Part shown: piece by piece, positions 10,231 to 41,227 of the stretch
Position numbering within the stretch: position 1 is the stretch's first letter
Layout: every line of letters begins with the position of its first letter
IMG/VR virus record: IMGVR_UViG_3300031552_000002
Coordinates: 1 to 64,000 of that record
DNA: 64,000 bases
Source of the DNA: a virus
Strand: one strand, 5' to 3'
Made by a program: the position numbers and the translations under genes
Notes under the pieces: generated by a model
The model's database searches: none
What the model saw: the letters and a program-made list of their open reading frames with translations, nothing else
What the model was told of the DNA's origin: nothing

Positions 10231-10251
10231 GGTGTCCTCTCAGGAAGAGTT

Positions 10252-10289: not shown

Positions 10290-10610
10290 TCAGGCGGCGT
10301 CCGCGAGGATCTTGGCGTAGTGCCTCACCCCATCGAAGACGTCGTGGAGGGCGTCCTCGGAGAGGAACGCGTAGTTGATGTCCTCTAGCCTGTCGAAGGT
10401 CTCGTCAATGGCGTCCTGCCATTCCTGCGTGGTGATGGTGTTCGCGGCGATGGCCGCGTCCACGCGCGCTGCCTGCGTGAGCAGGTAGGTCGCGTCCTGG
10501 ATCCAGGAGGCGTGCTCGCGGTCGTTCTCGATTCCGAGCTGGGCGCGGAGGAAGTCCGCTGTCGTCTCGGTGACGGTGGCGGTGGTGGTGATGGTGATGG
10601 TGGCGTTCAT
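10290..10610 (-). CDS. small acidic hypothetical protein (MNAT-start cassette)
   Basis: AGGAGGACACC RBS; promoter at 10655-10683. Confidence 0.7.
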   Translation of the reverse strand: MNATITITTTATVTETTADFLRAQLGIENDREHASWIQDATYLLTQAARVDAAIAANTITTQEWQDAIDETFDRLEDINYAFLSEDALHDVFDGVRHYAKILADAA

Positions 10611-10684
10611 GGTGTCCTCCTGGTGGTGGTGGGGTGAACCTTGCCGACACCTGAATACTGTCAGGTGCGGCGGGCGTTGTCAAC
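10599..10684 (-). repeat. 86-bp perfect inverted repeat, left copy (promoter, RBS, first 4 codons)
   Basis: Exact reverse complement of 11962..12047. Confidence 0.95.
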
Positions 10685-10747
10685 GCGAACACGGGAACCA
10701 CCAAAACCGTGGTGCCCCTGACCGAGGCCAGGGGCACCACCACACCG

Positions 10748-11329
10748 TCAGCTGAACCTCACCGAGGCCAGCTGCTTCTCGGTGAGCTGCCCCTCCCTCA
10801 GGTGTCGTGCCCCACTGAGATCGGCCCCGGACAGGCGCGCCCCGGCGAACTGCACGCCGAACAGGTCCGCCCACCGGAGATCGGCATCGGTGAGGTCCGC
10901 GCCGGTCAGGTCCGCGCCGGACAGGTCTGCGCCGGACAGATTCGCACAGATGAATTTCGCTTTCCACGCGTTGGCCCATCTGAGGTCTGCGCCGGTGAAA
11001 TCGGCACCTGAACAGGACGCGTCGACGAGGTCGGCCGCAATGAGCTTGGCGCCGGTGAGATTCGCGGTGGACAGATCCGCGCCGGTCAGATCGGCTTTGA
11101 TCAGATCCGCTGCGATCATCTGAACGCTGTGCGCGCAGACGCTGATGAGCTTCGTCCTGTAGAACGAGGCCGAGGTCGCTGTCGCCATTGTCAAGTTGGC
11201 GCCGGTGAGATTTGCGTCAGAGAAGTTGCCGCGGAGCAGGTTCGCCCGGCGCAGGTCTGCGCCGGGCAGGTCGGCTCTGGTGAGATTCGCGGCAGCGTAG
11301 TTTTTCTTGGTCTTGGCCTGGGTGTTCAT
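10748..11329 (-). CDS. pentapeptide repeat protein
   Basis: A(D/N)L(T/S)G repeats throughout. Confidence 0.9.
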   Translation of the reverse strand: MNTQAKTKKNYAAANLTRADLPGADLRRANLLRGNFSDANLTGANLTMATATSASFYRTKLISVCAHSVQMIAADLIKADLTGADLSTANLTGAKLIAADLVDASCSGADFTGADLRWANAWKAKFICANLSGADLSGADLTGADLTDADLRWADLFGVQFAGARLSGADLSGARHLREGQLTEKQLASVRFS

Positions 11330-11357
11330 GGTGCCCTCCTCGTTTACTGGCATCCAC

Positions 11358-11386
11358 ATACTGTCACCCTCAGTGCCCACTGTCAA
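11358..11386 (-). promoter_or_regulatory. repeated promoter
   Basis: TTGACA-N14-TGA-CAGTAT. Confidence 0.75.
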
Positions 11387-11487
11387 CGCGAGGCACGCAA
11401 CGCCGCCCCCCGATGACAGGCTATGCCTGCCAGACCGGCCCTCGACGGCTCCCAAAAAACTGCCGGCCCCAGGCCGTTCAGTTGTCG

Positions 11488-11516
11488 TTGATAGCTGCTC
11501 TAGCACGTGACGGTAT
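11488..11516 (+). promoter_or_regulatory. repeated promoter, variant
   Basis: TTGATA-N14-TGA-CGGTAT. Confidence 0.55.
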
Positions 11517-11549
11517 TGGCGCAACAGCATTCGAGCCAAGGGAGTCATC

Positions 11550-11933
11550 ATGAGATCGATATGGATGTTCCAGATCGAGCACCTCGTCGCCCCGTACACG
11601 ACCCGCAGCGACGACGGGACGATTGACTGGGGGGAGCCGGACCCCAACTATGTCGCGCTCATGCGGTCGATCATGAGAGGTGGGGCCTTTATCGTCATCT
11701 CCACCGATAAGGTATCGAAGGACAAGGCTCAGGGGCTCCACGGCTGGCTGGACAAGCACCACATCCCGGCGGGCCTTGCAGTCACAAGCAGCAGCACCGA
11801 CAGCCGCGACCACCTCGACCGGGCCAACGAGTGGCTTCGGGAGAACCTCAGCCCCGACGCCAAGGTGCTGGGGGCATTCACCCAGCCCCTTGACGGAGAC
11901 TGGCAGTCAGAGCACCTGGTCATGTATCCGTGA
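11550..11933 (+). CDS. degenerate HAD/PNKP-phosphatase-like protein, paralogue of 16094..16525
   Basis: Near-identical core to 16094..16525; aligns by eye to 32558..32989 but lacks DxD. Confidence 0.6.
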   Translation: MRSIWMFQIEHLVAPYTTRSDDGTIDWGEPDPNYVALMRSIMRGGAFIVISTDKVSKDKAQGLHGWLDKHHIPAGLAVTSSSTDSRDHLDRANEWLRENLSPDAKVLGAFTQPLDGDWQSEHLVMYP

Positions 11934-11961
11934 TGCGGTCGCCAGATGTCTCGGCGTAATG

Positions 11962-12047
11962 GTTGACAACGCCCGCCGCACCTGACAGTATTCAGGTGTC
12001 GGCAAGGTTCACCCCACCACCACCAGGAGGACACCATGAACGCCACC
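11962..12047 (+). repeat. 86-bp perfect inverted repeat, right copy
   Basis: TTGACA 11963-68, CAGTAT 11986-91, AGGAGG, ATG 12036. Confidence 0.95.
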
Positions 12048-12395
12048 CGCGAGATCTGCAGCTGGAACAACATCGCCACCAGTACGCTCCGGGTCGAGGA
12101 CTGCGTCAGCGACTACCTGTCAGGTGGCGGCGTCGAGTTCGGCGAGCGCTGCTCCGCCACCGGGAGCTATGCCCGGATGGTCGATGGCTACCGGGACGCG
12201 ATCAACGAGGCTTTCCCCGAGGGCATCTCCCTCAACGGGGACGTCGTGTATGGCCCCGCCGACACCGACATCGCGCTTGAGACGCTCCGCGAGATCGTCG
12301 AAGAGATCGACCTCGGCGCGATCGTCGAGCGTCACGACCCCGACCGCCACGGCAACCGCGAGGTCGCCGAGGTCACCGGACGCCACGACCGCTGA
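12036..12395 (+). CDS. acidic hypothetical protein, paralogue of 34197..34508
   Basis: MNATREICSW vs MGATREICNW; YRDAI/YREAL. Confidence 0.7.
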   Translation: MNATREICSWNNIATSTLRVEDCVSDYLSGGGVEFGERCSATGSYARMVDGYRDAINEAFPEGISLNGDVVYGPADTDIALETLREIVEEIDLGAIVERHDPDRHGNREVAEVTGRHDR

Positions 12396-12404
12396 CCAGC
12401 CAGG

Positions 12405-12444
12405 CGGAAGGCCCCACCCCAGCATCCCGGGGTGGGGCCTTCCG
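12405..12444. terminator. hairpin between convergent genes
   Basis: GGAAGGCCCCACCCC-AGCATCCC-GGGGTGGGGCCTTCC. Confidence 0.7.
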
Positions 12445-12489
12445 TCTGTCCAAGACCATCCATCGGGCCTTGTGGCCAGGCGGATTCCC

Positions 12490-13191
12490 CTACGGATCGG
12501 TGTAGGTACGCCAGGCGCGGGTGATGACCCCGGACCCGGGGAACAGGTCGTCCAGGGTGTCCCCGGGCTGGGCGTTGAGCAGGTCGAAGACCCACCGGGC
12601 GAAAACCGGTGGCTTGGTGCCGATGACACGGCCCGGGACAGTAGTCATGGGCGTCACCCCGTGCACGAGGGAGTCAGGCACTGCTTCCCCGTCAGGGTCA
12701 CGAGGCCGGGACGGCACATACAGTACGGGCTCCCACGCGGTCAGGGGGTTGCGGGACCGCGTAGGCCGGGGGCCCCGGTGCCACGCGGCGACACGGACCC
12801 CGCGCGGGCACAGGCCCAGGACCGCGGGTAGGGCGCTGGCCGAGGTTGACAGGGCCCATCCGTCATACCCGCAGAGCCGACGGATCAGCACGGCATGATC
12901 GACCTCCCCGGCGTAGTCCGGGTGATCCCGGTAGTAGTGCGCGAGCCCGGGGTACGGGGGGTCAGCGTAGGCCAGCCGCCGAGGACCCCCAGGGCAGGCA
13001 GGACCGGCGGTGCCGACGACCCGGGCGAACCTGGCCCGGGCCTGCCGGCAACGCTGCGAGCAGGTCAGGGCGTCGGACCGGGCGGCGGCCGGCAGGGGGC
13101 CCTCGCACCACGCGCAGGTGCGGGTAGCCGTCGAGTCCGGCCGCGGGCGACGGCTCAGGCCCCGCCCCGGGGCAGGGGCGGTGTCAGACAT
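12490..13191 (-). CDS. amino (N6A/N4C) DNA methyltransferase with N-terminal Zn finger
   Basis: YADPPY, TKP, DLFPGSG; CAWC..CSQRC. Confidence 0.8.
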   Translation of the reverse strand: MSDTAPAPGRGLSRRPRPDSTATRTCAWCEGPLPAAARSDALTCSQRCRQARARFARVVGTAGPACPGGPRRLAYADPPYPGLAHYYRDHPDYAGEVDHAVLIRRLCGYDGWALSTSASALPAVLGLCPRGVRVAAWHRGPRPTRSRNPLTAWEPVLYVPSRPRDPDGEAVPDSLVHGVTPMTTVPGRVIGTKPPVFARWVFDLLNAQPGDTLDDLFPGSGVITRAWRTYTDP

Positions 13192-13303
13192 GGCCGGTCA
13201 GGGTCCAGTGGTTGGCGGCGGTGCGGACCTGGACGCCGGGGACTTGCATGGCCCCGGTGCTTGATCCGCCCGCCCCGCAGAACAGATCAGTCATGGTGAT
13301 CAT
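13184..13303 (-). pseudogene. 39-codon N-terminal remnant of a C5 cytosine methyltransferase
   Basis: Hand translation MITMTDLFCGAGGSSTGAMQVPGVQVRTAANHWTLTGHV* (motif I FxGxGG plus AANHW). Confidence 0.75.
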
Positions 13304-13902
13304 CGCAGGTCCCTGAAGTTGGTAATGATGGTGTCATCGTTGGCGACCTGCTCAGCCTTAAGACCGGTGGCTGTCGGCCAGCACGCGCCGGGGCACAGGA
13401 GGGGAGTTAGGGCCCTGGCGGTGGCAGCGCTGGTGGTCTGCAGGTACAGGCCACTGGCCGTGACCGTGATGTGCCAGAGGTCCGCCAGGTTTATGGGGGA
13501 CCCGGGGACGGTCAGGGCCTCGTGCAGGCGGGCCAGGTGGCCGATCATGGCGCTGGAACCCGGGATGCGGTGCTGGATCAGCACCCGGGCGTCGTGAATG
13601 ATCGTGACGTCCGCGTAGTGCCCCCACGGTGTCGGCGCCCCGGACCCGGACCATTGAGTCAGCGGCGGGTGCGTGTTCTTGGACGGCGGGACCCCCAGGC
13701 GGTCAGCGAACACCTGGGCCGCCTCGACAGAGGCCATGGCCAGGGTCAGGTAGGGGGATCCCGGCTGGCACTGGTAGGTCGCGATACCGATGCTGTCGAT
13801 CTGTCCGGCCTCGGCGGGCAGCTGCCTGAGCAGGGCCAGCAGATCTGCCACGTGGGCCCCCGGGGAGGCGTACGAAACGGGCCGGTCGGTGCTGTCGGTC
13901 AT
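13300..13902 (-). CDS. hypothetical protein
   Basis: AGAGAGGAC RBS. Confidence 0.6.
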   Translation of the reverse strand: MTDSTDRPVSYASPGAHVADLLALLRQLPAEAGQIDSIGIATYQCQPGSPYLTLAMASVEAAQVFADRLGVPPSKNTHPPLTQWSGSGAPTPWGHYADVTIIHDARVLIQHRIPGSSAMIGHLARLHEALTVPGSPINLADLWHITVTASGLYLQTTSAATARALTPLLCPGACWPTATGLKAEQVANDDTIITNFRDLR

Positions 13903-13935
13903 GGTGATGTCCTCTCTGTGCTGGTGGTCAGGAGT

Positions 13936-13993
13936 GCCCTGGCCCGGTCTGACTCCGGGTGTCCCGCTCACGTCCCTGCGCGGGGTCCAGGGC
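13936..13993 (-). ncRNA. tRNA-like three-way-junction element, copy A
   Basis: GCCCTGG-AC-CCCGC[12]GCGGG-ACA-CCCGG[AGTCAGA]CCGGG-CCAGGGC. Confidence 0.6.
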
Positions 13994-14003
13994 TGGCCTG
14001 GTG

Positions 14004-14732
14004 TCAGATCTCCCAGGAGGCTTCTCGTAGGCAGTCCTCGCACCACCAACGCGGTGCGAGTTCCTCATTGTCGTCGGAGGGAGCGGACCCGGGGCAGGCG
14101 CCGGGGCCAGCAAGCCACCACTCGACGGCGGACGGGTCGGGGGCGGACACCAGTTCGGGGACCTCAGGCACGGCCCGGTGGCACCTGTGGCATTTCCCCA
14201 GGGCGCCCTGGGCGGCCTGGCCCTGTGCCTCCTGGGCGGGGGGTGTTTCTCGGATCTCCCGCAGGTAGACCCCGAGAGCCTCCAGGGTGACGTGATGCTC
14301 CGGCTTGGTGGCGAGGGCGGACAACAGCCCGTGCAGACGCCACAGCCATTGACGGTCGGTGCTGGTAGGGGCGGGGCGGTGTGCCTTCAGCGCGCGGAGG
14401 ATCACGGCCTGGTCGGCGCCATACTGCTGTGCCAGGACTGAGGCGAGAGCCTCCACCCCAGCCCCCTCCACGGGGATCTGCCGTTCTTTGTCGAAGATCA
14501 AGCCGTCGGACTTACGTCCGATGACCTGCGTGAGCGCGGTCTCTCTGACGTCCCAGTGCCCACCAGACAGCTGTAGGACGGCCAGTTCGACATCGTGGCC
14601 GTCACCGGTCTCGGCGTCGACGACGGTGAGAGACACCTCACTGTCAGCGAGTGGGACGTCGCTGAAGAAACCGCCTCGAATGCGGATCTCGGTTCCCGGG
14701 TGGTAGAGATCCCCGATGGGGTACATGACCAT
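14004..14732 (-). CDS. hypothetical protein; N-terminal domain paralogous to 14833..15186
   Basis: Shared LQLS.G.WDVRE..L.Q..GRK.D..ERQIPVEG.G.EALAS. Confidence 0.7.
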   Translation of the reverse strand: MVMYPIGDLYHPGTEIRIRGGFFSDVPLADSEVSLTVVDAETGDGHDVELAVLQLSGGHWDVRETALTQVIGRKSDGLIFDKERQIPVEGAGVEALASVLAQQYGADQAVILRALKAHRPAPTSTDRQWLWRLHGLLSALATKPEHHVTLEALGVYLREIRETPPAQEAQGQAAQGALGKCHRCHRAVPEVPELVSAPDPSAVEWWLAGPGACPGSAPSDDNEELAPRWWCEDCLREASWEI

Positions 14733-14765
14733 GATCTTGTCCTCTCTGGGGGTGATGCTGGTCGT

Positions 14766-14822
14766 GCCCTGGCCCGGTCCGACTCCGGGTGTCCCGCTCG
14801 CGTCCTGCGCGGGGTCCAGGGC
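14766..14822 (-). ncRNA. tRNA-like three-way-junction element, copy B
   Basis: GCCCTGG-AC-CCCGC[11]GCGGG-ACA-CCCGG[AGTCGGA]CCGGG-CCAGGGC. Confidence 0.6.
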
Positions 14823-14832
14823 TGGTCTGGGG

Positions 14833-15186
14833 TCAGGCATCCGGGCCGGGGTGTGCCTGGAGGGCGCGGAGGATCACGGCCTGGTTTGCTCCGTACTCCT
14901 GAGCCAGGGCTGAGGCGAGGGCCTCCAGTCCGGTCCCCTCTACGGGGATCTGCCGTTCCTCGTCGTACACCCAGCTGTCGAACTTGCGTCCGACGAGCTG
15001 CCCGAGGATTGCCTCTCGGACGTCCCAAGAACCGTTCGACAGCTGTAGGACGGTCAGCTCGGCGTCGTACCCGTTGCCGGTGTCGGCGTCGGTGACGGCG
15101 AGATCCATCTCACAGTCTGTGAGTGGACCGTAAATGTCGATCTCGGTCCCCTGGTGGTACTCCTTGCCGATGGCGTACATGACCAT
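14833..15186 (-). CDS. hypothetical protein, tandem paralogue
   Basis: AGAGAGGACAC RBS; homology to the next gene. Confidence 0.7.
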   Translation of the reverse strand: MVMYAIGKEYHQGTEIDIYGPLTDCEMDLAVTDADTGNGYDAELTVLQLSNGSWDVREAILGQLVGRKFDSWVYDEERQIPVEGTGLEALASALAQEYGANQAVILRALQAHPGPDA

Positions 15187-15216
15187 GGTCGTGTCCTCTC
15201 TGGTGGTGTTGTGGTC

Positions 15217-15274
15217 TGGCGCCTTGCCCCGGTCTGACTCCGGGCGCCCGCCTCAGTGGTGGCGGTGGCAAGGC
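15217..15274 (-). ncRNA. tRNA-like three-way-junction element, copy C, ending in GCCA
   Basis: GCCTTGC-CA-CCGCC[8]GGCGG-GCG-CCCGG[AGTCAGA]CCGGG-GCAAGGC-GCCA; compensatory changes relative to A and B. Confidence 0.6.
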
Positions 15275-15281
15275 TGGTGGT

Positions 15282-15653
15282 TCAACGTGCCGAGCGGCGT
15301 GCTGCTTCAGCTCTCCGGTAGCGGGTAGCCCACCGGCGGACGAGCTTCCTAAGCTCGGTGGCCTCTGTTGGTGTCACGAAGACGTAGCCCTGCTGACAGC
15401 GCGTCAGCTGGTGGAGCTCGACCCAGCCCGGAGTCGAGTACTCCCAGGACTTGAAGAGTGGGCGGAGCACGGCGAGGAAAGCCTCGTCGTAGTTCCAGCC
15501 CCAGCTGGCGTTCCTGACGACGCTGTCGTCATCGATGACGGTGACGGCGTCGAGGGCGTCGGCGGGGACGCGGGGAGCGTTCCCCGGCTTCTGGGCCGGG
15601 TTCACTGTCGCCGGAATTCCGGCGATCAGCTCGCTCACCGTTTTCTCGCTCAT
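15282..15653 (-). CDS. hypothetical protein
   Basis: GGGAGGAG RBS. Confidence 0.65.
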   Translation of the reverse strand: MSEKTVSELIAGIPATVNPAQKPGNAPRVPADALDAVTVIDDDSVVRNASWGWNYDEAFLAVLRPLFKSWEYSTPGWVELHQLTRCQQGYVFVTPTEATELRKLVRRWATRYRRAEAARRSAR

Positions 15654-15683
15654 GGTGGCTCCTCCCTTCGGTGTCGTCGGTGA

Positions 15684-15938
15684 TCAGGCGGCGAGCGCGG
15701 TCTCGATGATCTCGCCCGCCTCGTCACCGGTGAGGTAGGCGATGGTCTCGCTGACCACCGGGTCGATGTTGCTGGCGCTGATGGGGGTGTCGGCGCCGAT
15801 GTTGAGGGTGTAGGTGACGCGTCCCACCGCCAGGTTCTCGGCGACGCCGTTGTTGGCGCCGAGGGCCGCGAGTTCGGCGTTGAGGTACTCCTCGACCAGG
15901 TCGCTGATGAGGTCGGTGACGGTGGGGGTGGCGTTCAT
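15684..15938 (-). CDS. small acidic hypothetical protein (MNAT-start cassette)
   Basis: GAGGAGGACACC RBS. Confidence 0.7.
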   Translation of the reverse strand: MNATPTVTDLISDLVEEYLNAELAALGANNGVAENLAVGRVTYTLNIGADTPISASNIDPVVSETIAYLTGDEAGEIIETALAA

Positions 15939-15971
15939 GGTGTCCTCCTCGGCTCACGTTCTGACATCCAC

Positions 15972-16000
15972 ATACTGTCATGTGCCGTAGGTGCTGTCAA
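15972..16000 (-). promoter_or_regulatory. repeated promoter
   Basis: TTGACA-N14-TGA-CAGTAT followed by GTGGATGTCA. Confidence 0.75.
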
Positions 16001-16048
16001 CCTGAGACGCTGAGACACGCCCAGGAACATGCGGAAGGCCAGCAACCA

Positions 16049-16084
16049 GAAGGGCGCCCGCCGGAACTCCGGCGGGCGCCCTTC
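16049..16084. terminator. perfect hairpin
   Basis: GAAGGGCGCCCGCCGGA-AC-TCCGGCGGGCGCCCTTC. Confidence 0.65.
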
Positions 16085-16093
16085 GAGGGGTGA

Positions 16094-16525
16094 TCACATC
16101 ACCTGTAGGTGATCTGCACTTCCAGATCCGTAACTGAACGCCCCTAGCACCTTGGCGCTGGGGTAGAGGTTTTCCCGGAGCCACTCGTTGGCCCGGTCCA
16201 CATGGTCACGACTGTCGGTGTTACTGCTCACGATGGTCAGGCCCGCCGGGATGTGGTGCTTGTCCAGCCAGCCGTGGAGCCCCTGAGCCTTGTCCTTCGA
16301 CACCAGGTCGGTGGAGGCCACGATGAAGGCCCCACCCCTCATGAGCGACCGCATGAGCGCGGCATAGCCAGGATCCGGCTCCCCCCAAGAAATCACCCCA
16401 CCATCACCCAGCACCGGGGCCGGAGCGACAAGGTACTCGATGTCGAACATCCAAGCCGACCGCCTGACTACTCCCTTAGCTCGACGGAGAAGGTACTCGA
16501 TGTCGAACATCCAAACTGACCGCAT
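16094..16525 (-). CDS. degenerate HAD-like protein with duplicated N-terminus
   Basis: WMFDIEYL occurs twice; paralogue of 11550..11933. Confidence 0.65.
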   Translation of the reverse strand: MRSVWMFDIEYLLRRAKGVVRRSAWMFDIEYLVAPAPVLGDGGVISWGEPDPGYAALMRSLMRGGAFIVASTDLVSKDKAQGLHGWLDKHHIPAGLTIVSSNTDSRDHVDRANEWLRENLYPSAKVLGAFSYGSGSADHLQVM

Positions 16526-16542
16526 GACTACTCCCTTAGCTC
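16430..16542. repeat. 60-bp-period tandem duplication
   Basis: 16430-16482 vs 16490-16542, 3 mismatches. Confidence 0.9.
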
Positions 16543-17045
16543 AGGTGGGGCGGGATGGTCCCAGCCCTCGGGATGATGTCGCCAATGTCGTCCCGGATGA
16601 TGTCCCCCCCGTCACCCTCACCGGGCCTCTCGTGCGCCGACCCGGCGGCGAGTCCGCGCAGTGCCGATGACACGTCCGTCATCCTGTCCCGTAGCGGGTC
16701 GATGTCTTCATTCCGGACTCGGAACGTCTTCACTCCGGACCCGTCTGTCAGCTCGGTGCTGATCGTCGCGCCGCCACAGAATCCGCTGTCGAAATCGATG
16801 GCGACGAGCTTCGAGCGGAATCGCTGCCGGTCCTCGTCGGGAGAGAACCCGTCGTTACCGAACTCGGGGTCGTCGACGAATCCCTCAGGTTCGAGTTCGA
16901 CCCAGCTGCGAGGATGCTGGGTCAGGGCTGCGCGCAGGGCGTCCCGGTAGGTGTTGTGGAGCCCTGGGGTGCGCCAGTCGGCGTCCCCGGCAATGATCCA
17001 CGTCCCGGTCTCATCGGATTCGGTGGCGTGTGGTCCAACAATCAT
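16536..17045 (-). CDS. hypothetical protein, paralogue of the N-terminal half of 27310..28419
   Basis: GP.AT..IA.DADW..PG.HN.YR.AL..ALT.H and IP..GT.P.HLS. Confidence 0.7.
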   Translation of the reverse strand: MIVGPHATESDETGTWIIAGDADWRTPGLHNTYRDALRAALTQHPRSWVELEPEGFVDDPEFGNDGFSPDEDRQRFRSKLVAIDFDSGFCGGATISTELTDGSGVKTFRVRNEDIDPLRDRMTDVSSALRGLAAGSAHERPGEGDGGDIIRDDIGDIIPRAGTIPPHLS

Positions 17046-17086
17046 GGTGTCCTCCGCGTCATCGTCGTCATCGTCCCGACGTCCAC

Positions 17087-17115
17087 ATACTGTCACGTGC
17101 GGCTGTCATTGTCAA
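17087..17115 (-). promoter_or_regulatory. repeated promoter
   Basis: TTGACA-N14-TGA-CAGTAT. Confidence 0.75.
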
Positions 17116-17136
17116 TGCGGAATACACGCCCCCACG

Positions 17137-17667
17137 TCATCCCTGCGAGCACGGCCCCAGCCGCTCACCGTCGAGAGTCGTCACACCTTCCCCCAGGTGC
17201 GCATCGCGGCTGATCTGACTTCCATGCGAGAGGATCACGTTCCGCTCGACGTCCGAACCGGAGCCGACGAATGATCCACTACCGATGAGGGCGTTCCTCC
17301 CTATCGTGACCCTTTCTCCGATCTGGACGGCGATCCCGACGACAACGGCGTCATGGATATGCGTCGCGTCTCCGACTCGGAGCCCATGCCCGAGGTCCGT
17401 GTGGCCACCATCGATGACGACGTCATCACCGATCTCGGAGCCGATCCCGAGGCTCGCGCCGATGCGCGACCTTGCCCCGATCTTCACCCCGAACCCGATC
17501 TTGACGTCATCCTCGATCTTGGTGTCTTCCCCGACGTCAGATCCAGCGAAGATCACCGCACGCCTGCCCACCTCGACCCCGGGGCCGATCTTTACCCAAG
17601 GGCCTACGGTGGCCGTCTCGTCGATAGTGGCCGTCTCGTTGATGGTGGCCGTCTTGTCGATGCCCAT
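17137..17667 (-). CDS. left-handed beta-helix (hexapeptide repeat) protein
   Basis: [IV]Gxxxx repeats over the whole length; AAGGAGG RBS. Confidence 0.85.
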   Translation of the reverse strand: MGIDKTATINETATIDETATVGPWVKIGPGVEVGRRAVIFAGSDVGEDTKIEDDVKIGFGVKIGARSRIGASLGIGSEIGDDVVIDGGHTDLGHGLRVGDATHIHDAVVVGIAVQIGERVTIGRNALIGSGSFVGSGSDVERNVILSHGSQISRDAHLGEGVTTLDGERLGPCSQG

Positions 17668-17765
17668 TGACTTCCTCCTTGTCAGAATCCGTTGTCTCCG
17701 CGGTCCCGCCGGTCCGTCTACCCGTCGCTGGCGGCCGCAGGCGACGAATGACGACGTGCTCGTGC

Positions 17766-18697
17766 TCAGGGAGAGCAGAGCTCGGGATCGGCGGCTCTCC
17801 GACGCTGCCTGAGGGCCGCCTTGACGTAGTCCGGCACCGGCACGCCCTTGCCGGCGCACTCCGGGCAGCAGATGACACGGTGGGTCGGGTGGTCAGGGCA
17901 CATCGCCTGAGGACCGGGAGCCGGGTGGGCCGCTGTGTGCCGATCTGACGGCCTCAAATCGCGAAGCCATGCCACCACAGCACCACCGTGGCACGAACCC
18001 CAGGACCGGGAACCTACGGCGGCGGAAATGGTCCCTGGGGTCCACCCGTCGGCTATCAGCCGCTCACACTCCCGGATGATGACTCCCCGGTTCAGGGACC
18101 GGCCCACGTCACCGACACCCTCGACAACCGCCTCAGCGAGGAGGGCAGTGGTTCCCCTGTGCCCGGCCTCAGTCGGGTTCTGGGTTGCGGGGTTTCCCGT
18201 TGATCCTTCCACCACCACCGTTGCCTCGTCTTGGGGTGCGGTGGGGCCGGTGGGCTGGGGGGCTTGGGGGGTGGATGGTTCTACGGATGGTTCTAAGGAT
18301 GGTTCGGGGGATGCTGGCATCCTCCCCCCCCCGGATGCTGGCATCCTCCCCCCCCGGATGCTGGCATCCCCCCCTGTTCAGGTGTCCGATGCTGCGACGT
18401 CCCATCGCAGCCGGCCGGACACCGGACGAGGATTTCATACCGGTTCGGACGCTCATGCTCAGCGGTCCGGCGAGTCCCGCCATCGCCCAGGTGAGTCCGG
18501 ATCTCGCCGGCAGTCTCCAGGCGGCGCAGGGCCGCGCGGACGTTCCGGGGATCGACGTTCGCGTACTTGGCCAGCGTCGCGATGGTCGGCCAGGACCCGC
18601 CGTCGCCGTCGTGGTTGGCGATCCCGAGGAGGACGACCTTGTCGGTGCCTCTGGACCGTGAGTGGTGCAGGACGATCGCCAGTGCCTCGACGCTCAT
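17766..18697 (-). CDS. wHTH replication initiator-like protein, split by a 1-nt frameshift in a G tract (ORFs 18293..18697 and 17766..18344)
   Basis: KVVLLGIANH..SWPTIATLA..VRAALRRLE HTH; EPSLEPSVEP linker; one extra G at 18348-55 joins the frames. Confidence 0.7.
18309..18374. repeat. three palindromic iteron-like repeats GGATGC-TG-GCATCC with C tracts
   Basis: Starts 18309, 18333, 18356; C9, C8 and C7 runs. Confidence 0.85.
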
Positions 18698-26507: not shown

Positions 26508-27272
26508 ATGAAACTCCACAACGGGCCCCGCCAGACAACGGCAGAGGCAGCAGCAACCCACCTCGGAATCGACGTCAACGAAGGCGAAAAATTCTACGCC
26601 TGGGTCAACCCCGCGGACCTTGACCGGAAGGCCATCTGGGCAAACTTCAAGGGATTGCCCCACCCTGACGAGGAGCTCGTCCTCGTCGCGATCCCGGTCT
26701 TCCCCCGCTCCGCCGCCATCCGGAGCGGACGCGGCGTAGGGAACATCCCCTGCTTGCGGGTCCCGCGCGAGAAAGTCGAGAAGATCGGAACGTTCACGAT
26801 CTCCGAGGTCGTGAAGTCAGGAGCCCTAGCCCGGGTCTCCCTCAGAGGACTCAACCTCCAGGACTGGTCCGCAGCGCGCTACTGGGACAAGCGGACCTGG
26901 GACCTGTCCGGATGGTTTCTCGAAAGGGCCAGCCTCCCCGAGGCAGGACTCTCCGGGATCCCCATGATCAGGATCAACCTGGCGCGAGCGAACCTCACCG
27001 GCGCCTCCCTGAACACGGCAAACATGACAGCAGCAACACTCCGCCGGGCGAACCTGACCGGGGCCAAGCTCCGGGGATCCAACCTCACCGGCGCCGATCT
27101 GAGCGGCGCAGACCTGGCCAAGACCGATTTCCTGAACGCGAATCTGACCGGGGCCGATCTCCGATCCGCCAAGAACATCGGAGACGCGAGAGTCTCTGGA
27201 GCGAAGATCACCGGAGCGCTCATGGACGAGGGCATCCGAGAGATCCTGCTCAGCAACGGCGCGACCGAGTAA
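26508..27272 (+). CDS. pentapeptide repeat protein with unique N-terminal domain
   Basis: ANLTG/ADLSG repeats in the C-terminal half. Confidence 0.85.
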   Translation: MKLHNGPRQTTAEAAATHLGIDVNEGEKFYAWVNPADLDRKAIWANFKGLPHPDEELVLVAIPVFPRSAAIRSGRGVGNIPCLRVPREKVEKIGTFTISEVVKSGALARVSLRGLNLQDWSAARYWDKRTWDLSGWFLERASLPEAGLSGIPMIRINLARANLTGASLNTANMTAATLRRANLTGAKLRGSNLTGADLSGADLAKTDFLNANLTGADLRSAKNIGDARVSGAKITGALMDEGIREILLSNGATE

Positions 27273-28578: not shown

Positions 28579-29286
28579 ATGAAAACATTCGCCAGGGCCG
28601 CAGCCCAGTCCCTCAACCTCGGCCCCGCCCCCCACGGATCCGTCTACGCCGTCATCCACTGCGGCGGTGACCGAATCCCCAGCGGGGAACTCGGACGCAC
28701 GCCACTCCCCCCCACCGGGGGAACCTACCCCGGGTTGCTCTGCGCCCAGAGGGATTTCGACTACAGCTGGAGTATCGGCACACCGCTGGCAGTCCTCGTC
28801 GTACCGCTGGCCAGCCCCTTCGCACCACTCGCCGATCACATGCCCGAGGAGAACATCGAGGAGAACATCGAGAAGAACATCCGGGTCGGCCGGTTCTTGT
28901 TCCTGTCCGCCGAGGTCGTCGGAGAGGTCACTTTCCACGGCGTCGCGCACTGGGGCAGCCTGGCCAACACCTACTTGACCGGTCTCATCCTGTCGGGCCT
29001 CGACCTGTCGGGCCTCGACCTGTCAGGCGCGGACCTTAGCTCGGCCAACCTCAACCGCGCGAACCTGTCCGACGCTGACCTGTCCGACGCGAACCTGTCC
29101 GGCGCGGACCTCACCGACGCAGACCTCACCGGCGCGAACCTGACCGAGGCGAACCTCACCGGCGCGGATCTGACCGACGCGATCCTGTCCGGCGTGGACC
29201 TCACCGACGCAGACCTGACAGGAGTGATCCTGACCGGGGCGGACCTCGACGGCGTCGAGGGTCTTCCCCCCATCCTGAGCATCTGA
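28579..29286 (+). CDS. pentapeptide repeat protein with unique N-terminal domain
   Basis: A(D/N)L(S/T)(D/G) repeats. Confidence 0.85.
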   Translation: MKTFARAAAQSLNLGPAPHGSVYAVIHCGGDRIPSGELGRTPLPPTGGTYPGLLCAQRDFDYSWSIGTPLAVLVVPLASPFAPLADHMPEENIEENIEKNIRVGRFLFLSAEVVGEVTFHGVAHWGSLANTYLTGLILSGLDLSGLDLSGADLSSANLNRANLSDADLSDANLSGADLTDADLTGANLTEANLTGADLTDAILSGVDLTDADLTGVILTGADLDGVEGLPPILSI

Positions 29287-29309: not shown

Positions 29310-30608
29310 ATGGGCGCCCTGGACGCCATGAGCATCAGCGAGATCACCGGCATTCTGGCCAACGATTATCACCGGCCGCTGCGGGCCCTCGTCATCACCC
29401 AGGGACCCCCCGGGTGCGGGAAAACCACGTGGGCATCCCGCTACGTGGACGAGATCAACAGCACGTATAAGGAAATGGAAACGAGGGCCTTCAAGGGGCC
29501 CTCACGGGACGACCTCCGTGCTCTGCGCGGATACCCGCCCCTGGGGAACACTCAGCAGGAAAGCAAGGTGTCCCAGATCCAGAGAAAGGCCATCAGGGGA
29601 CACTTCAGCTCGTCCTGTAGCAGAAACACTATCGTCGTCATTGACGATACGAACGTCTCCACGATGGCCCTGCACAACATGAAAATCATCGCCGAGGAGA
29701 ACAACGCTTTCCTCGTGATCAAGAGATTCGAGGTCCCCCGCGAGGAATGTCTTAGGCGTTGCCGGGATCGCGGGTATCGCCCGATCTCGGCCTCGGTCTG
29801 GGATCTGATCGATTCTCGTCTTGCCGGGCTGGACAACGCCATGATCGCTGAGGCTGTCGTAACAGGTACGAAGATTCAGCTTCCGGTCGTTCTCCGGGCC
29901 CTGGACCGCGCCGGGATCGGGGTCACCGGGCCGTCCCCGGAGAAAGCCCTTGAGGTGCTGCTCTCCCTCGGCTACGGCCAGGAGGATCTCATCGAATGGT
30001 TCAACGAGCCCTGTGTTGATGACCGGGACAGCTTCGAGGAGTTCTTGTTTCTCAGGATCGGGATTGAGAGGGCACGTAAGGCCCTGGGGGCAGCACTGCC
30101 GATGGTCTCGCCGCCGTCCTGGTTCGTGGAAGCGCACCAGCGCGCACAGGCGGCTGAAGGTGATTCGGTCAGGGACGCGAGCCTTCGCGGCGTCATCAAG
30201 TGGTTCATCCCTTCGTGCCTGGAGGAGGCACGAACAGCCGTCGTCAGGATGGCGTTCGGTCTCCGGCCTGAAGTCCAGGGGCTTCGTGAGAAGCTCGACG
30301 GCTCAGAGACCGCGTGGGGGCAGCTGTGGGGACGGCCTCTCCGAGGGGCGGAGGATGACCGTCTAGCGGTTTTCGCGGTGATGGTCGTCGCAAGCGCGGA
30401 GGGTGATGCCGTCGCGTTCCGACGGAGGGTCGCGGTGGCAGCCCGGATGATCCCTCACAAGGTTGTGAGGGGCGAGGGGACGCTGCCGTCGGCCTACTGG
30501 ACGTATACGTCCAGCACCTTTTCTCCTCGGGTCTTCAGCAAGGTCGGGTCTGTGGCGGCGTGGGTCCCGCCGTGCGCTGAGGCCCTGGCCTCAGTGATCG
30601 GATGGTGA
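29310..30608 (+). CDS. PNK-type P-loop kinase domain fused to an unknown C-terminal domain
   Basis: GPPGCGKT, SRDDLR, VIDDTN, ECLRR. Confidence 0.75.
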   Translation: MGALDAMSISEITGILANDYHRPLRALVITQGPPGCGKTTWASRYVDEINSTYKEMETRAFKGPSRDDLRALRGYPPLGNTQQESKVSQIQRKAIRGHFSSSCSRNTIVVIDDTNVSTMALHNMKIIAEENNAFLVIKRFEVPREECLRRCRDRGYRPISASVWDLIDSRLAGLDNAMIAEAVVTGTKIQLPVVLRALDRAGIGVTGPSPEKALEVLLSLGYGQEDLIEWFNEPCVDDRDSFEEFLFLRIGIERARKALGAALPMVSPPSWFVEAHQRAQAAEGDSVRDASLRGVIKWFIPSCLEEARTAVVRMAFGLRPEVQGLREKLDGSETAWGQLWGRPLRGAEDDRLAVFAVMVVASAEGDAVAFRRRVAVAARMIPHKVVRGEGTLPSAYWTYTSSTFSPRVFSKVGSVAAWVPPCAEALASVIGW

Positions 30609-30690: not shown

Positions 30691-30942
30691 GTGAAACTCT
30701 TAACGGCGCAGCAGGTCGTCGATCACCTGGAACGTCACTACGGCAGGAAAGCCCTGCCCCGCACGTGGCGGTCCTACGTCTACCGGGGAACAGCGCCACC
30801 ACCCGACGCGTACGCCACAGTCCGCGGCCTGCTGCTGGACTGGCAATCCCAAGACCTCGGCCCACGACCTACCCCCCTCTGGAGGATAGACACCGTGGAC
30901 CGGTGGGCCTCGACCCGAGAGAACACCGAGAGGACACCATGA
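30691..30942 (+). CDS. Xis/MerR-like HTH protein
   Basis: LLTAQQV..TWRSYVYRG.APPPD..PLWR..TVDRW. Confidence 0.65.
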   Translation: MKLLTAQQVVDHLERHYGRKALPRTWRSYVYRGTAPPPDAYATVRGLLLDWQSQDLGPRPTPLWRIDTVDRWASTRENTERTP

Positions 30943-32034: not shown

Positions 32035-32561
32035 CGCTGACCATCGTGGGCGTGGATCCCGGGGCGCGATGGACCGGTGTCATCGCGAGGCGGGGCCGTG
32101 ATCTGTTGCACGGTGTCGTGGTCGAGAACACGGCCGGGGACCGGGTTCCGTACGCGGTAGCAGTGTGCGCGGAGATCCGGAACGGGATCGAGATCAGCGG
32201 CGGGAATGCCGTGGTCGCGGTGGAAGACGTAAGGGCTCCCTGCCCGCACGTGAACCGCCGGAACGGGAGAGCCTTGACGAACCCGGGGCCGATCATCGAG
32301 ACCGGGGTCCTCCTCGGGTGGGTCCTAGCCACGTTCGAGGACGTCGTGGTCGTCCCACCGGGCGGGCACGGGTCGAACCCCCTCATCAGCTACCCGGGCG
32401 CCCTGGTCACGGCCAGCGAGCACGCTCACATGGTCCGCGCTAAGGCCCAGCTCAAACCAGCACCGCAAAACTCGACCCGGCGGCACCTACGGTCTGCCTG
32501 GGACATCGCGGGGACCCTCACCAGGGTCGGCCGCACACACCTAACGAGGAGGACACAGTGA
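32031..32561 (+). CDS. RuvC-like Holliday junction resolvase
   Basis: IVGVDPG..TG, VAVED, RHLRSAWDIA. Confidence 0.7.
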   Translation: MTLTIVGVDPGARWTGVIARRGRDLLHGVVVENTAGDRVPYAVAVCAEIRNGIEISGGNAVVAVEDVRAPCPHVNRRNGRALTNPGPIIETGVLLGWVLATFEDVVVVPPGGHGSNPLISYPGALVTASEHAHMVRAKAQLKPAPQNSTRRHLRSAWDIAGTLTRVGRTHLTRRTQ

Positions 32562-32989
32562 GTTACTGGGTTGTGGATGTTGACGGGACTCTCGCAATCA
32601 GGTGCCCGGGGGGGCGTGGTCCCTACGAGGAGGACCGGGTGTGGGAAGACCTCCCTAACCTGCCAGTCATTGAGATTGTCCAGGCTCTCAGGGCGGCAGG
32701 GCACCTGATCATTATCGTGTCCGGGCGGCAGGACTCCTGTAAGGAAGAAACTGAGGCGTGGCTGGCGAGACACAGAGTGCAATACAACTCGGTATACATG
32801 CGGAAGGCCGGAGACCGTAGGCATGACTACGAGGTGAAGGGGGAGATCCTAGAAAAGATCTTCCGGGATCACCCGCTGATCGGTGACCCGCAGGACAACC
32901 TGCGAGTCCTGGATGACCGTGATCAATGCGTACGGCTGTGGCGCGACTGTGGCCTGTTCTGCGCTCAGGTCGCGCCGGGGGACTTCTGA
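32558..32989 (+). CDS. PNKP-type HAD 3'-phosphatase
   Basis: DVDGTLA, SGR, MRKAGDRR.D..VK, DDR. Confidence 0.85.
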   Translation: MSYWVVDVDGTLAIRCPGGRGPYEEDRVWEDLPNLPVIEIVQALRAAGHLIIIVSGRQDSCKEETEAWLARHRVQYNSVYMRKAGDRRHDYEVKGEILEKIFRDHPLIGDPQDNLRVLDDRDQCVRLWRDCGLFCAQVAPGDF

Positions 32990-41200: not shown

Positions 41201-41227
41201 GGTGTGGTGTCCTCTCGGTTATTGCTG

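Follow-up and report, generated by a model that had tools for sequence, protein, structure and literature searches.

Three branched, foldable repeats that separate neighboring genes within a single operon of an uncultivated actinophage-like virus

What are three copies of a foldable sequence doing between consecutive genes of a single phage operon? The locus that raises this question lies in the first 64 kb (hereafter, the window) of the 75.8-kb IMG/VR virus record IMGVR_UViG_3300031552_000002, which is classed as linear and 84% complete. An earlier note, made from the bare sequence, had described three tRNA-like repeats punctuating an operon here. Reading of the minus strand bore out the repeats and their placement: three copies of a 54–58-nucleotide (nt) foldable sequence, named A, B and C, lie between consecutive genes in the order g1–g2–(C)–X1–(B)–X2–(A)–Y–39-amino-acid (aa) open reading frame (ORF)–233-aa ORF. 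Coordinates are collected in Table 1. Tentatively, we favor the reading that the elements are structured RNA modules between cistrons, private to this phage, which set how the mRNA is processed or how stable its segments are.

All copies have the same layout. A 7-bp outer stem is followed by a 2-nt linker, a 5-bp stem with a loop of 8–12 nt (the middle hairpin), a 3-nt linker and the conserved hairpin CCCGG-AGTCRGA-CCGGG, after which the outer stem closes without a spacer. On the coding strand, copy A reads GCCCTGG AC CCCGC (12-nt loop) GCGGG ACA CCCGG AGTCAGA CCGGG CCAGGGC. Copy B is the same except for an 11-nt middle loop and the conserved loop AGTCGGA, so that it differs from A only by a 1-nt deletion and a U>C change in the middle loop and an A>G change in the conserved loop. 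Copy C reads GCCTTGC CA CCGCC (8-nt loop) GGCGG GCG CCCGG AGTCAGA CCGGG GCAAGGC and is followed by GCCA, as had been noticed before. Position and orientation are alike in all three: a stop codon, 7–10 nt, the element, 33–34 nt and an ATG. The element is non-coding, since copy C carries an in-frame TGA in its middle loop and the 5' halves of A and B fall in different reading frames because of the 1-nt indel in the middle loop; read as codons, the A/G difference between the conserved loops would change the amino acid. Stop-codon readthrough or a fusion across the element was rejected, as the frames join neither X1 to X2 nor X2 to Y.

The Y shape was the minimum-energy fold of every copy, either alone or with flanks of ~15 nt (ViennaRNA). 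All 17 stem pairs form in each copy, and in C four of them carry double changes that leave every pair intact. The fold and the compensatory changes proposed in the earlier note were thus confirmed. Stem-pair conservation together with the double changes was matched by 5 of 500 shuffles, and slid registers collapsed. A covariance model (R1) was built from the three copies, as had been suggested. It scored A at 83.7, B at 80.9 and C at 72.2 bits, clear of a background whose next best match in the window reached 18 bits, and found no further copies in the whole 75.8-kb record.

Inspection of the two hairpin loops showed that a 3-bp helix, YGA/UCR, is possible between them in all copies, and that it covaries between A and B (U-A to C-G). 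The partners are the R of the conserved loop (UCA vs UCG) and the Y located three nucleotides from the end of the middle loop (UGA vs CGA). Two of the three A–B differences are therefore compensating partners of this helix. Copy C keeps UGA/UCA despite an otherwise unrelated middle loop. YGA/UCR is the only conserved 3-bp Watson–Crick helix among the unpaired columns; column shuffles gave any such helix in 1.3% of cases and a covarying one in 0.9%. From these patterns we infer a loop–loop contact, new to this analysis, and the element would be best drawn as a compact three-way junction with touching hairpin loops. A pseudoknot between loop and flank was also considered and rejected: CUGAC at the stop codons ahead of A and B complements the loop, but copy C lacks it. 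The stop contexts of X2 and X1 (14002–14007 and 14831–14836, minus strand) read UCUGAC and CCUGAC, and complement GUCAGA and GUCGG (the latter with one G-U pair). A riboswitch or a ribozyme was rejected as well, because the junction nucleotides are too few and not conserved.

Several results limit the case for this structure. The folding z-scores relative to shuffles were modest (−1.5 to −2.2) in this context of 65–80% GC. With 150-nt flanks, the probability of the outer stem was 0.77 for A, 0.11 for B and 0.24 for C. The covarying pairs number five in total and come from two independent lineages only (A/B and C). All 60 pair cells are Watson–Crick with zero G-U, and the complementary strand folds about equally well. 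No homologue of the element was found in any database searched, which precludes a further covariation test.

A functionless relic would account for part of this picture. Here, a GC-rich intergenic palindrome would have been copied with the genes in a tandem duplication, its complementarity kept by template-switch correction of quasi-palindromes and not by selection. The modest z-scores are in line with such an origin, as is the occurrence in one genome only, as three adjacent copies beside duplicated genes and with no relatives found. It accounts poorly for three nested helices that stay perfect in a copy diverged at four stem pairs, both linkers and most of one loop, for the covarying inter-loop contact, and for the constant spacing to stop codon and ATG. 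We consider the relic unlikely.

Because every pair cell is Watson–Crick, the sequence fixes neither the strand nor the choice between RNA and single-stranded DNA. Minus-strand RNA is the likely active form in view of the gene orientation, the place of the elements in one transcription unit, and a bidirectional terminator that halts plus-strand transcription at ~12.4 kb. Neither promoter-like nor terminator-like sites occur at copies A, B and C, and all three lie within one transcription unit. A look-up of sequencing runs listed no RNA run with this sequence and a single DNA run, of small share, whose coverage was confined to scattered short pieces. The elements do not look like intrinsic terminators, in which a U tract follows a GC-rich hairpin: a terminator scan of 10500–18000 gave none at them, and their 3' flanks read ACUCCUGACC, ACGACCAGCA and GCCAGACCAC.

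The flanks are C/A-rich and G-poor, and the element contains no complement of the ribosome-binding site. Accordingly, the structure appears insulated and not part of a switch. Placement and pairing led us to keep a cis-acting, post-transcriptional role in mRNA processing or stabilization, one of several options raised in the earlier note, as the best reading. The transcript would form a compact three-way junction in which the 7-bp outer helix is continuous with the invariant 5-bp hairpin, while the second 5-bp hairpin, variable in sequence, would touch it through three loop–loop base pairs. The module would stand between unstructured C/A-rich linkers, right after a stop codon and ~20 nt ahead of the next strong ribosome-binding site. 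Once a linker was cut, it would block 3'-to-5' exonucleases of the PNPase type, and it may also block the 5'-to-3' exonuclease RNase J. The X1, X2 and Y segments of the mRNA would thereby gain their own ends and half-lives, and each CAGAGAGGACA-type ribosome-binding site would be kept free of upstream GC-rich sequence.

The conserved hairpin suggests another way of acting on the same transcript. Both lineages keep it unchanged (17 of 17 positions, leaving aside the covarying R), but they differ in the remaining two stems and in both linkers. CCCGG-AGUCRGA-CCGGG could be the site of a sequence-specific RNA-binding protein or endoribonuclease, supplied by the phage (possibly an operon ORFan) or by the host, which would control translation or cleavage of the adjacent cistrons. 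The operon proteins have no recognizable family, and X2 has a CxxC...CxxC tail, both of which count in favor of this reading. However, no RNA-binding or nuclease domain was detected in any neighbor, the hairpin does not recur elsewhere in the genome, and at ~30 nt ahead of the ribosome-binding site it is too distant simply to occlude that site. Such an operator seems improbable to us.

The earlier note had gone further and read the outer stem and the conserved hairpin as the half of a tRNA recognized by RNase P, RNase Z and the CCA-adding enzyme. In true mimicry, the two would serve as an acceptor/T-arm minihelix; host RNase P would cut 5' of the first G and RNase Z or exonucleases on the 3' side, the operon mRNA would be punctuated in the manner known from mitochondria and plant t-elements, and tRNA-like RNAs of 54–62 nt may be released. 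The geometry does match: a 7-bp outer stem, a 2-nt linker and a 5-bp arm with a 7-nt loop that adjoins the 3' outer strand directly, giving a 12-bp coaxial stack. GCCA follows copy C, the loop–loop contact formally resembles the D-loop/T-loop elbow, and the t-elements of plant mitochondria show that signals of this kind can set mRNA ends (PMC1920247).

The searches did not support the claim. ARAGORN found no tRNA or tmRNA gene on either strand of the window. Rfam 15 gave nothing at gathering score across the window and no match to the tRNA clan, to tmRNA or to another family at E ≤ 10 on 13800–15400; only sub-threshold noise appeared (mir-m22-1, HIV_PBS, RsmV and anti-hemB). As far as Rfam goes, the earlier statement that this is no described family therefore holds. 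So does the remark that the loop is non-canonical: AGUCRGA on the coding strand lacks U54 and A58 of the T-arm consensus GGTTCRANYCC (U54, C56, A58), the motif that defines t-elements. A discriminator with a correctly placed CCA occurs in one of the three copies (GCCA in C); A has ACUCC and B has ACGACC at this place. Moreover, the middle loop lacks the conserved GG, and no CCA-adding enzyme is encoded in the phage record. The complement of copy B (14776–14786, plus strand) reads GGTCCGACTCC, one mismatch from GGTTCRANYCC; on that strand, however, the hairpin adjoins the 5' outer strand, which is the mirror image of the tRNA arrangement and thus the wrong topology. The likeness to tRNA is weak and appears to be one of outline only, and the elements do not look like tRNA relatives. 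We regard true mimicry as quite unlikely.

Slightly more doubtful is the extension of this idea to tRNA punctuation in a bacterial virus. Host RNase P and 3'-end enzymes would cut the operon mRNA into monocistronic pieces and free three stable, tRNA-shaped RNAs of 54–62 nt. Each would be a minimal acceptor/T-like minihelix whose non-canonical loop is held by a D-loop-like contact, and the freed RNAs could be decoys for host enzymes or defenses that bind the tRNA elbow or acceptor end. If this were true, the organellar punctuation principle would extend to phages of bacteria.

The genes around the elements bear on where the repeats came from. X1 and the first ~120 aa of X2 share 68% amino-acid and 76% nucleotide identity, in agreement with the earlier claim that two flanking genes are paralogues. 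The listed 278-aa frame (14004–14840) runs through copy B. The real start of X2 is ATG 14732; the 242-aa database product P0001 fits it, and homologues begin at the same M..Y N-terminus. ATG 14840 overlaps the stop codon of X1 (ATGCCTGA, 14833–14840, minus strand) and opens a frame through copy B, in the frame of X2, that adds 36 codons. It is probably not used, though the arrangement is of the coupling type. Copies A and B are 95% identical, whereas identity between the paralogous genes is 76%, and 71% at their third codon positions. This excess of identity indicates constraint or gene conversion focused on the element. The order C–X1–B–X2–A, with B nearly identical to A, would fit an origin in which a gene and its element were duplicated in tandem as one unit, the element afterwards being subject to gene conversion or to strong constraint.

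The same order could also reflect an element acting at the DNA level. It would be a site that folds as a single strand or a cruciform, or else the boundary of a recombination event, behind the tandem duplication or exchange of X cassettes, with n+1 elements around n cassettes. Exactly two paralogous cassettes are bracketed, all pairs are Watson–Crick, both strands fold equally, and the resemblance of A to B far exceeds that of the surrounding genes, as gene conversion would predict. Beyond the pairing, however, the folded-ssDNA recombination site suggested in the earlier note found no support. Neither a tyrosine recombinase (PF00589) nor a serine recombinase was found in the 84%-complete record. 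Words flanking a copy on both sides match equally between copies (for example, CCAGACCA occurs in the 5' flank of B and the 3' flank of C); as these repeats are not copy-specific, there is no target-site duplication. Loop–loop covariation is also hard to explain for duplex DNA. We find a DNA-level element very unlikely. Three specific candidates were rejected. An integron attC-type site lacks its conserved R''/R' core (RYYYAAC ... GTTRRRY), with no GTT core in A or B, and PF00589 is absent. For a TraB clt or 8-mer recognition site, the TraB-type 8-mers were not clustered. A miniature inverted-repeat transposable element or other small mobile repeat disagrees with the three adjacent copies, with their absence from 151 Streptomyces genomes and with the flank repeats that are not copy-specific.

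We looked for relatives of the element more widely. Of the searches that had been proposed, the Rfam scan placed the element in no known family, and R1 recovered no relatives in sets of viral and actinobacterial genomes. R1 had no match in the 151 Streptomyces genomes, in three other actinobacterial genomes or in the viral record (G004) that holds the only viral locus found for the X family (L144). In 28 DnaB-related viral records it gave one match of 19.5 bits, which was judged to be noise. A structural descriptor (outer stem, hairpin ending in YGA and 5-bp/NNUCRNN hairpin) was run over 5.1 Mb of loci and returned the three copies only; shuffles gave two matches. With blastn, the intergenic units had no meaningful match among GenBank phages or PLSDB plasmids.

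The exact conserved hairpin, CCCGGAGTCRGACCGGG, occurs at 19 loci in IMG/VR, vs ~14 expected by chance with IMG/VR taken as ~60 Gb. The architecture of the window was found at none of them, except in a Bacteroides prophage. In 185,579 species genomes there were at least 120 matches, with one recurrent group in a Streptomyces coding stretch (...MLGIPESDR...) that we read as cytochrome P450-like. A 20-mer of hairpin plus linker had 34 matches in metagenomes, none of them Y-shaped. Matches to the 17-mer and the 20-mer are about as many as the chance estimate, and many lie in coding sequence.

The Bacteroides prophage (Bacteroides neonati; L022, with the same sequence in L102) carries a different Y-shaped intergenic element in two copies, L022:12031–12080 and L022:11058–11107, both on the minus strand. 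It has the outer stem UUCAUUU/GAAUGAA and the small hairpin UCGU-ACAG-ACGA around the same 17-nt hairpin, CCCGGAGUCAGACCGGG, and a hairpin CCUACUGG...AUAGGUAGG lies ahead of each copy. In the second copy, a C>U change gives a G-U pair, which points to RNA on that strand. This element has no Rfam match. It lacks the YGA/UCR contact, and its resemblance was judged coincidental and probably unrelated.

The flanking genes, too, were poor in relatives. A word search gave no homologues of X2, and four distant homologues were found for X1. At L144, a terminator and a promoter stand in place of the element. Neither P0003 nor P0005, searched for as relatives of flanking proteins, turned up in IMG/VR, and 401 genomes from the class to which G001 (Streptomyces) belongs contained no member of the X family. 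The element is real and well defined, apparently unnamed, and so far private to one uncultivated phage.

Table 1. Elements, signals and genes of the operon (positions in the window)
Feature	Position	Strand	Remarks
Copy A	13936–13993	−	58 nt; outer stem 13987–13993/13936–13942; middle hairpin 13963–13984; conserved hairpin 13943–13959; 10 nt after TGA end, 33 nt before ATG 13902
Copy A, proposed loop–loop pairs	13968–13970 (UGA) with 13950–13952 (UCA)	−	
Copy B	14766–14822	−	57 nt; conserved hairpin 14773–14789; 10 nt after TGA end, 33 nt before ATG 14732
Copy B, proposed loop–loop pairs	14798–14800 (CGA) with 14780–14782 (UCG)	−	
Copy C	15221–15274	−	54 nt; 3' GCCA at 15217–15220; conserved hairpin 15228–15244, identical to that of copy A; 7 nt after TGA end, 34 nt before ATG 15186
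Copy C, proposed loop–loop pairs	15253–15255 (UGA) with 15235–15237 (UCA)	−	Fourth pair possible
Spacer ahead of Y	13903–13935	−	C/A-rich, G-poor; with Shine–Dalgarno block CAGAGAGGACA (13908–13918) ahead of ATG 13902
Equivalent Shine–Dalgarno blocks	14738–14748 and 15192–15202	−	Equivalent to CAGAGAGGACA
Operon start	15939–16085	−	Terminator-like hairpin and promoter-like TTGACA...AGTATG module; promoter-like part near 15972–16000, downstream of the hairpin
g1	15684–15938	−	First gene of the operon
g2	15282–15653	−	123 aa; no family match; its TGA 7 nt upstream of copy C
X1	14833–15186	−	117 aa; copies C and B on either side; paralogue of X2
X2	14004–14732	−	242 aa; CxxC...CxxC tail; copies B and A on either side
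Y	13300–13902	−	200 aa; no family match; downstream of copy A
Operon end	near 12405–12440		Strong hairpin

The operon is an accessory one and probably early. For Y, the structure-based Atlas matches all had TM < 0.5. The 39-aa ORF (13184–13303, minus strand) follows Y directly through an ATGA overlap. Its beginning resembles that of a C5 cytosine methylase (motif I, DLFCGAGG; the match to PF00145 is weak, E 0.2), but the frame then stops. The 233-aa ORF after it (12490–13191, minus strand) carries DPPY and FPGSG motifs. Judging from these motifs, the two may be a broken or split methyltransferase at the operon end.

The rest of the window helped us to place the virus. It encodes a DnaB helicase, a YqaJ-type exonuclease, a ReqiPepy6 Gp37-like tail protein and an ORF of tape-measure size, and its G+C content is ~65%. 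On these grounds, we read the virus as an uncultivated, actinophage-like siphovirus of a high-GC Gram-positive host. Database searches gave no close relatives for most phage proteins, including two of 700 and 680 aa. Three separate pentapeptide-repeat proteins lie in accessory cassettes (10748–11647, minus strand; 26508–27272 and 28579–29286, plus strand). A 432-aa protein with a P-loop domain of the polynucleotide-kinase type (PHROG 505, AAA_33) is encoded at 29310–30608, and a 143-aa PNKP-type HAD phosphatase (PF25109, E 1.6e-38) at 32558–32989, both on the plus strand, so that end-healing functions are divided between two genes. No PF09414 RNA ligase was found in the whole record. The kinase and phosphatase domains fit a lifestyle involving RNA-end chemistry, a circumstantial link to the tRNA-punctuation idea. 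The start context AGAGGACACCATG is common to many genes across the window, such as those at 1621–1631, 10233–10243 and 41208–41218 (minus strand) and at 30926–30936 (plus strand). GACACCAT occurs 18 times and AGAGGACA 13 times in the window, vs ~1.3 expected.

If the proposed role in processing or stability is true, the element would be a compact, portable insulator and stabilizer for cistrons in high-GC actinobacterial operons. It would mean that phage mRNA can be punctuated by a branched fold, not a simple hairpin, and the known structured RNA motifs would gain a new one, with a tertiary loop–loop contact. At present, what one uncultivated virus offers is a well-defined candidate and not yet a discovery.

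We compared the element with known systems. In the early and late mRNAs of phage T7, RNase III hairpins lie between genes, and cleavage leaves a 3' hairpin that stabilizes the upstream message. As in T7, conserved structured elements stand within a polycistronic phage message, each after a stop codon and ahead of the ribosome-binding site that follows. Each T7 site is one irregular hairpin, ~20 bp long and interrupted by an internal loop, whereas the present element is a three-way junction whose longest coaxial stack, 12 bp, is short for RNase III. Intercistronic stabilizer stem–loops and repetitive extragenic palindromic (REP) elements, such as that of malE–malF, place a stable structure just after a cistron, where it guards the message upstream of it against 3' exonucleases and makes expression differ within an operon. 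The position is shared here. Those structures are simple hairpins, often present in hundreds of genomic copies, while the phage element is branched, has an invariant arm and is private to one operon. Kissing loops are found in tuning-fork three-way junctions, namely the purine riboswitch aptamer and hammerhead stems I/II. Like them, the phage element has two hairpins of equal length on a closing helix, with proposed Watson–Crick contacts between the loops. Its junction strands of 2, 3 and 0 nt are unconserved between lineages; hence there is no ligand pocket or catalytic core, and no Rfam riboswitch or ribozyme model matched.

The t-elements of plant mitochondria are tRNA-shaped without a full cloverleaf and lie beside coding regions, where RNase P and RNase Z use them to define the 5' and the 3' ends of mRNAs (Forner et al. 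2007, PMC1920247). An excised t-element can persist as a small RNA (PMC1920247). The phage element shares the incomplete tRNA-like shape and the placement beside coding regions of a longer transcript. The t-elements derive from tRNAs, and they were found by, and keep, the GGTTCRANYCC T-arm motif (PMC1920247). In contrast, the phage element has AGUCRGA and matches no tRNA model; it belongs to a bacterial phage instead of an organelle and is known from sequence alone.

Among actinophages, SAS of the Cluster K mycobacteriophages is a conserved block at translation starts that contains the ribosome-binding site, and ESAS is an inverted repeat with a variable spacer, found upstream of it in a subset of genes (Pope et al. 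2011, PMC3203893). Their function is unknown, and a post-transcriptional role is suspected (PMC3203893). The likeness lies in repeats that are specific to actinophages and linked to translation starts; in addition, genes of this phage share a start context, AGAGGACACCATG, of different sequence. SAS is the 13-bp GGGATAGGAGCCC, and ESAS is a simple 17-bp inverted repeat, present 5–10 times per genome and conserved across the phage cluster (PMC3203893). In contrast, the element described here is a three-way junction in three copies in one genome, and GGGATAGGAGCCC had no match at up to two mismatches. By analogy, the phage element would in its action most resemble the T7 RNase III hairpins and the stabilizer hairpins of operons, and in its looks the t-elements of plant mitochondria. 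It is a member of none of the systems compared, and its nearest described actinophage counterpart is SAS/ESAS of Cluster K.

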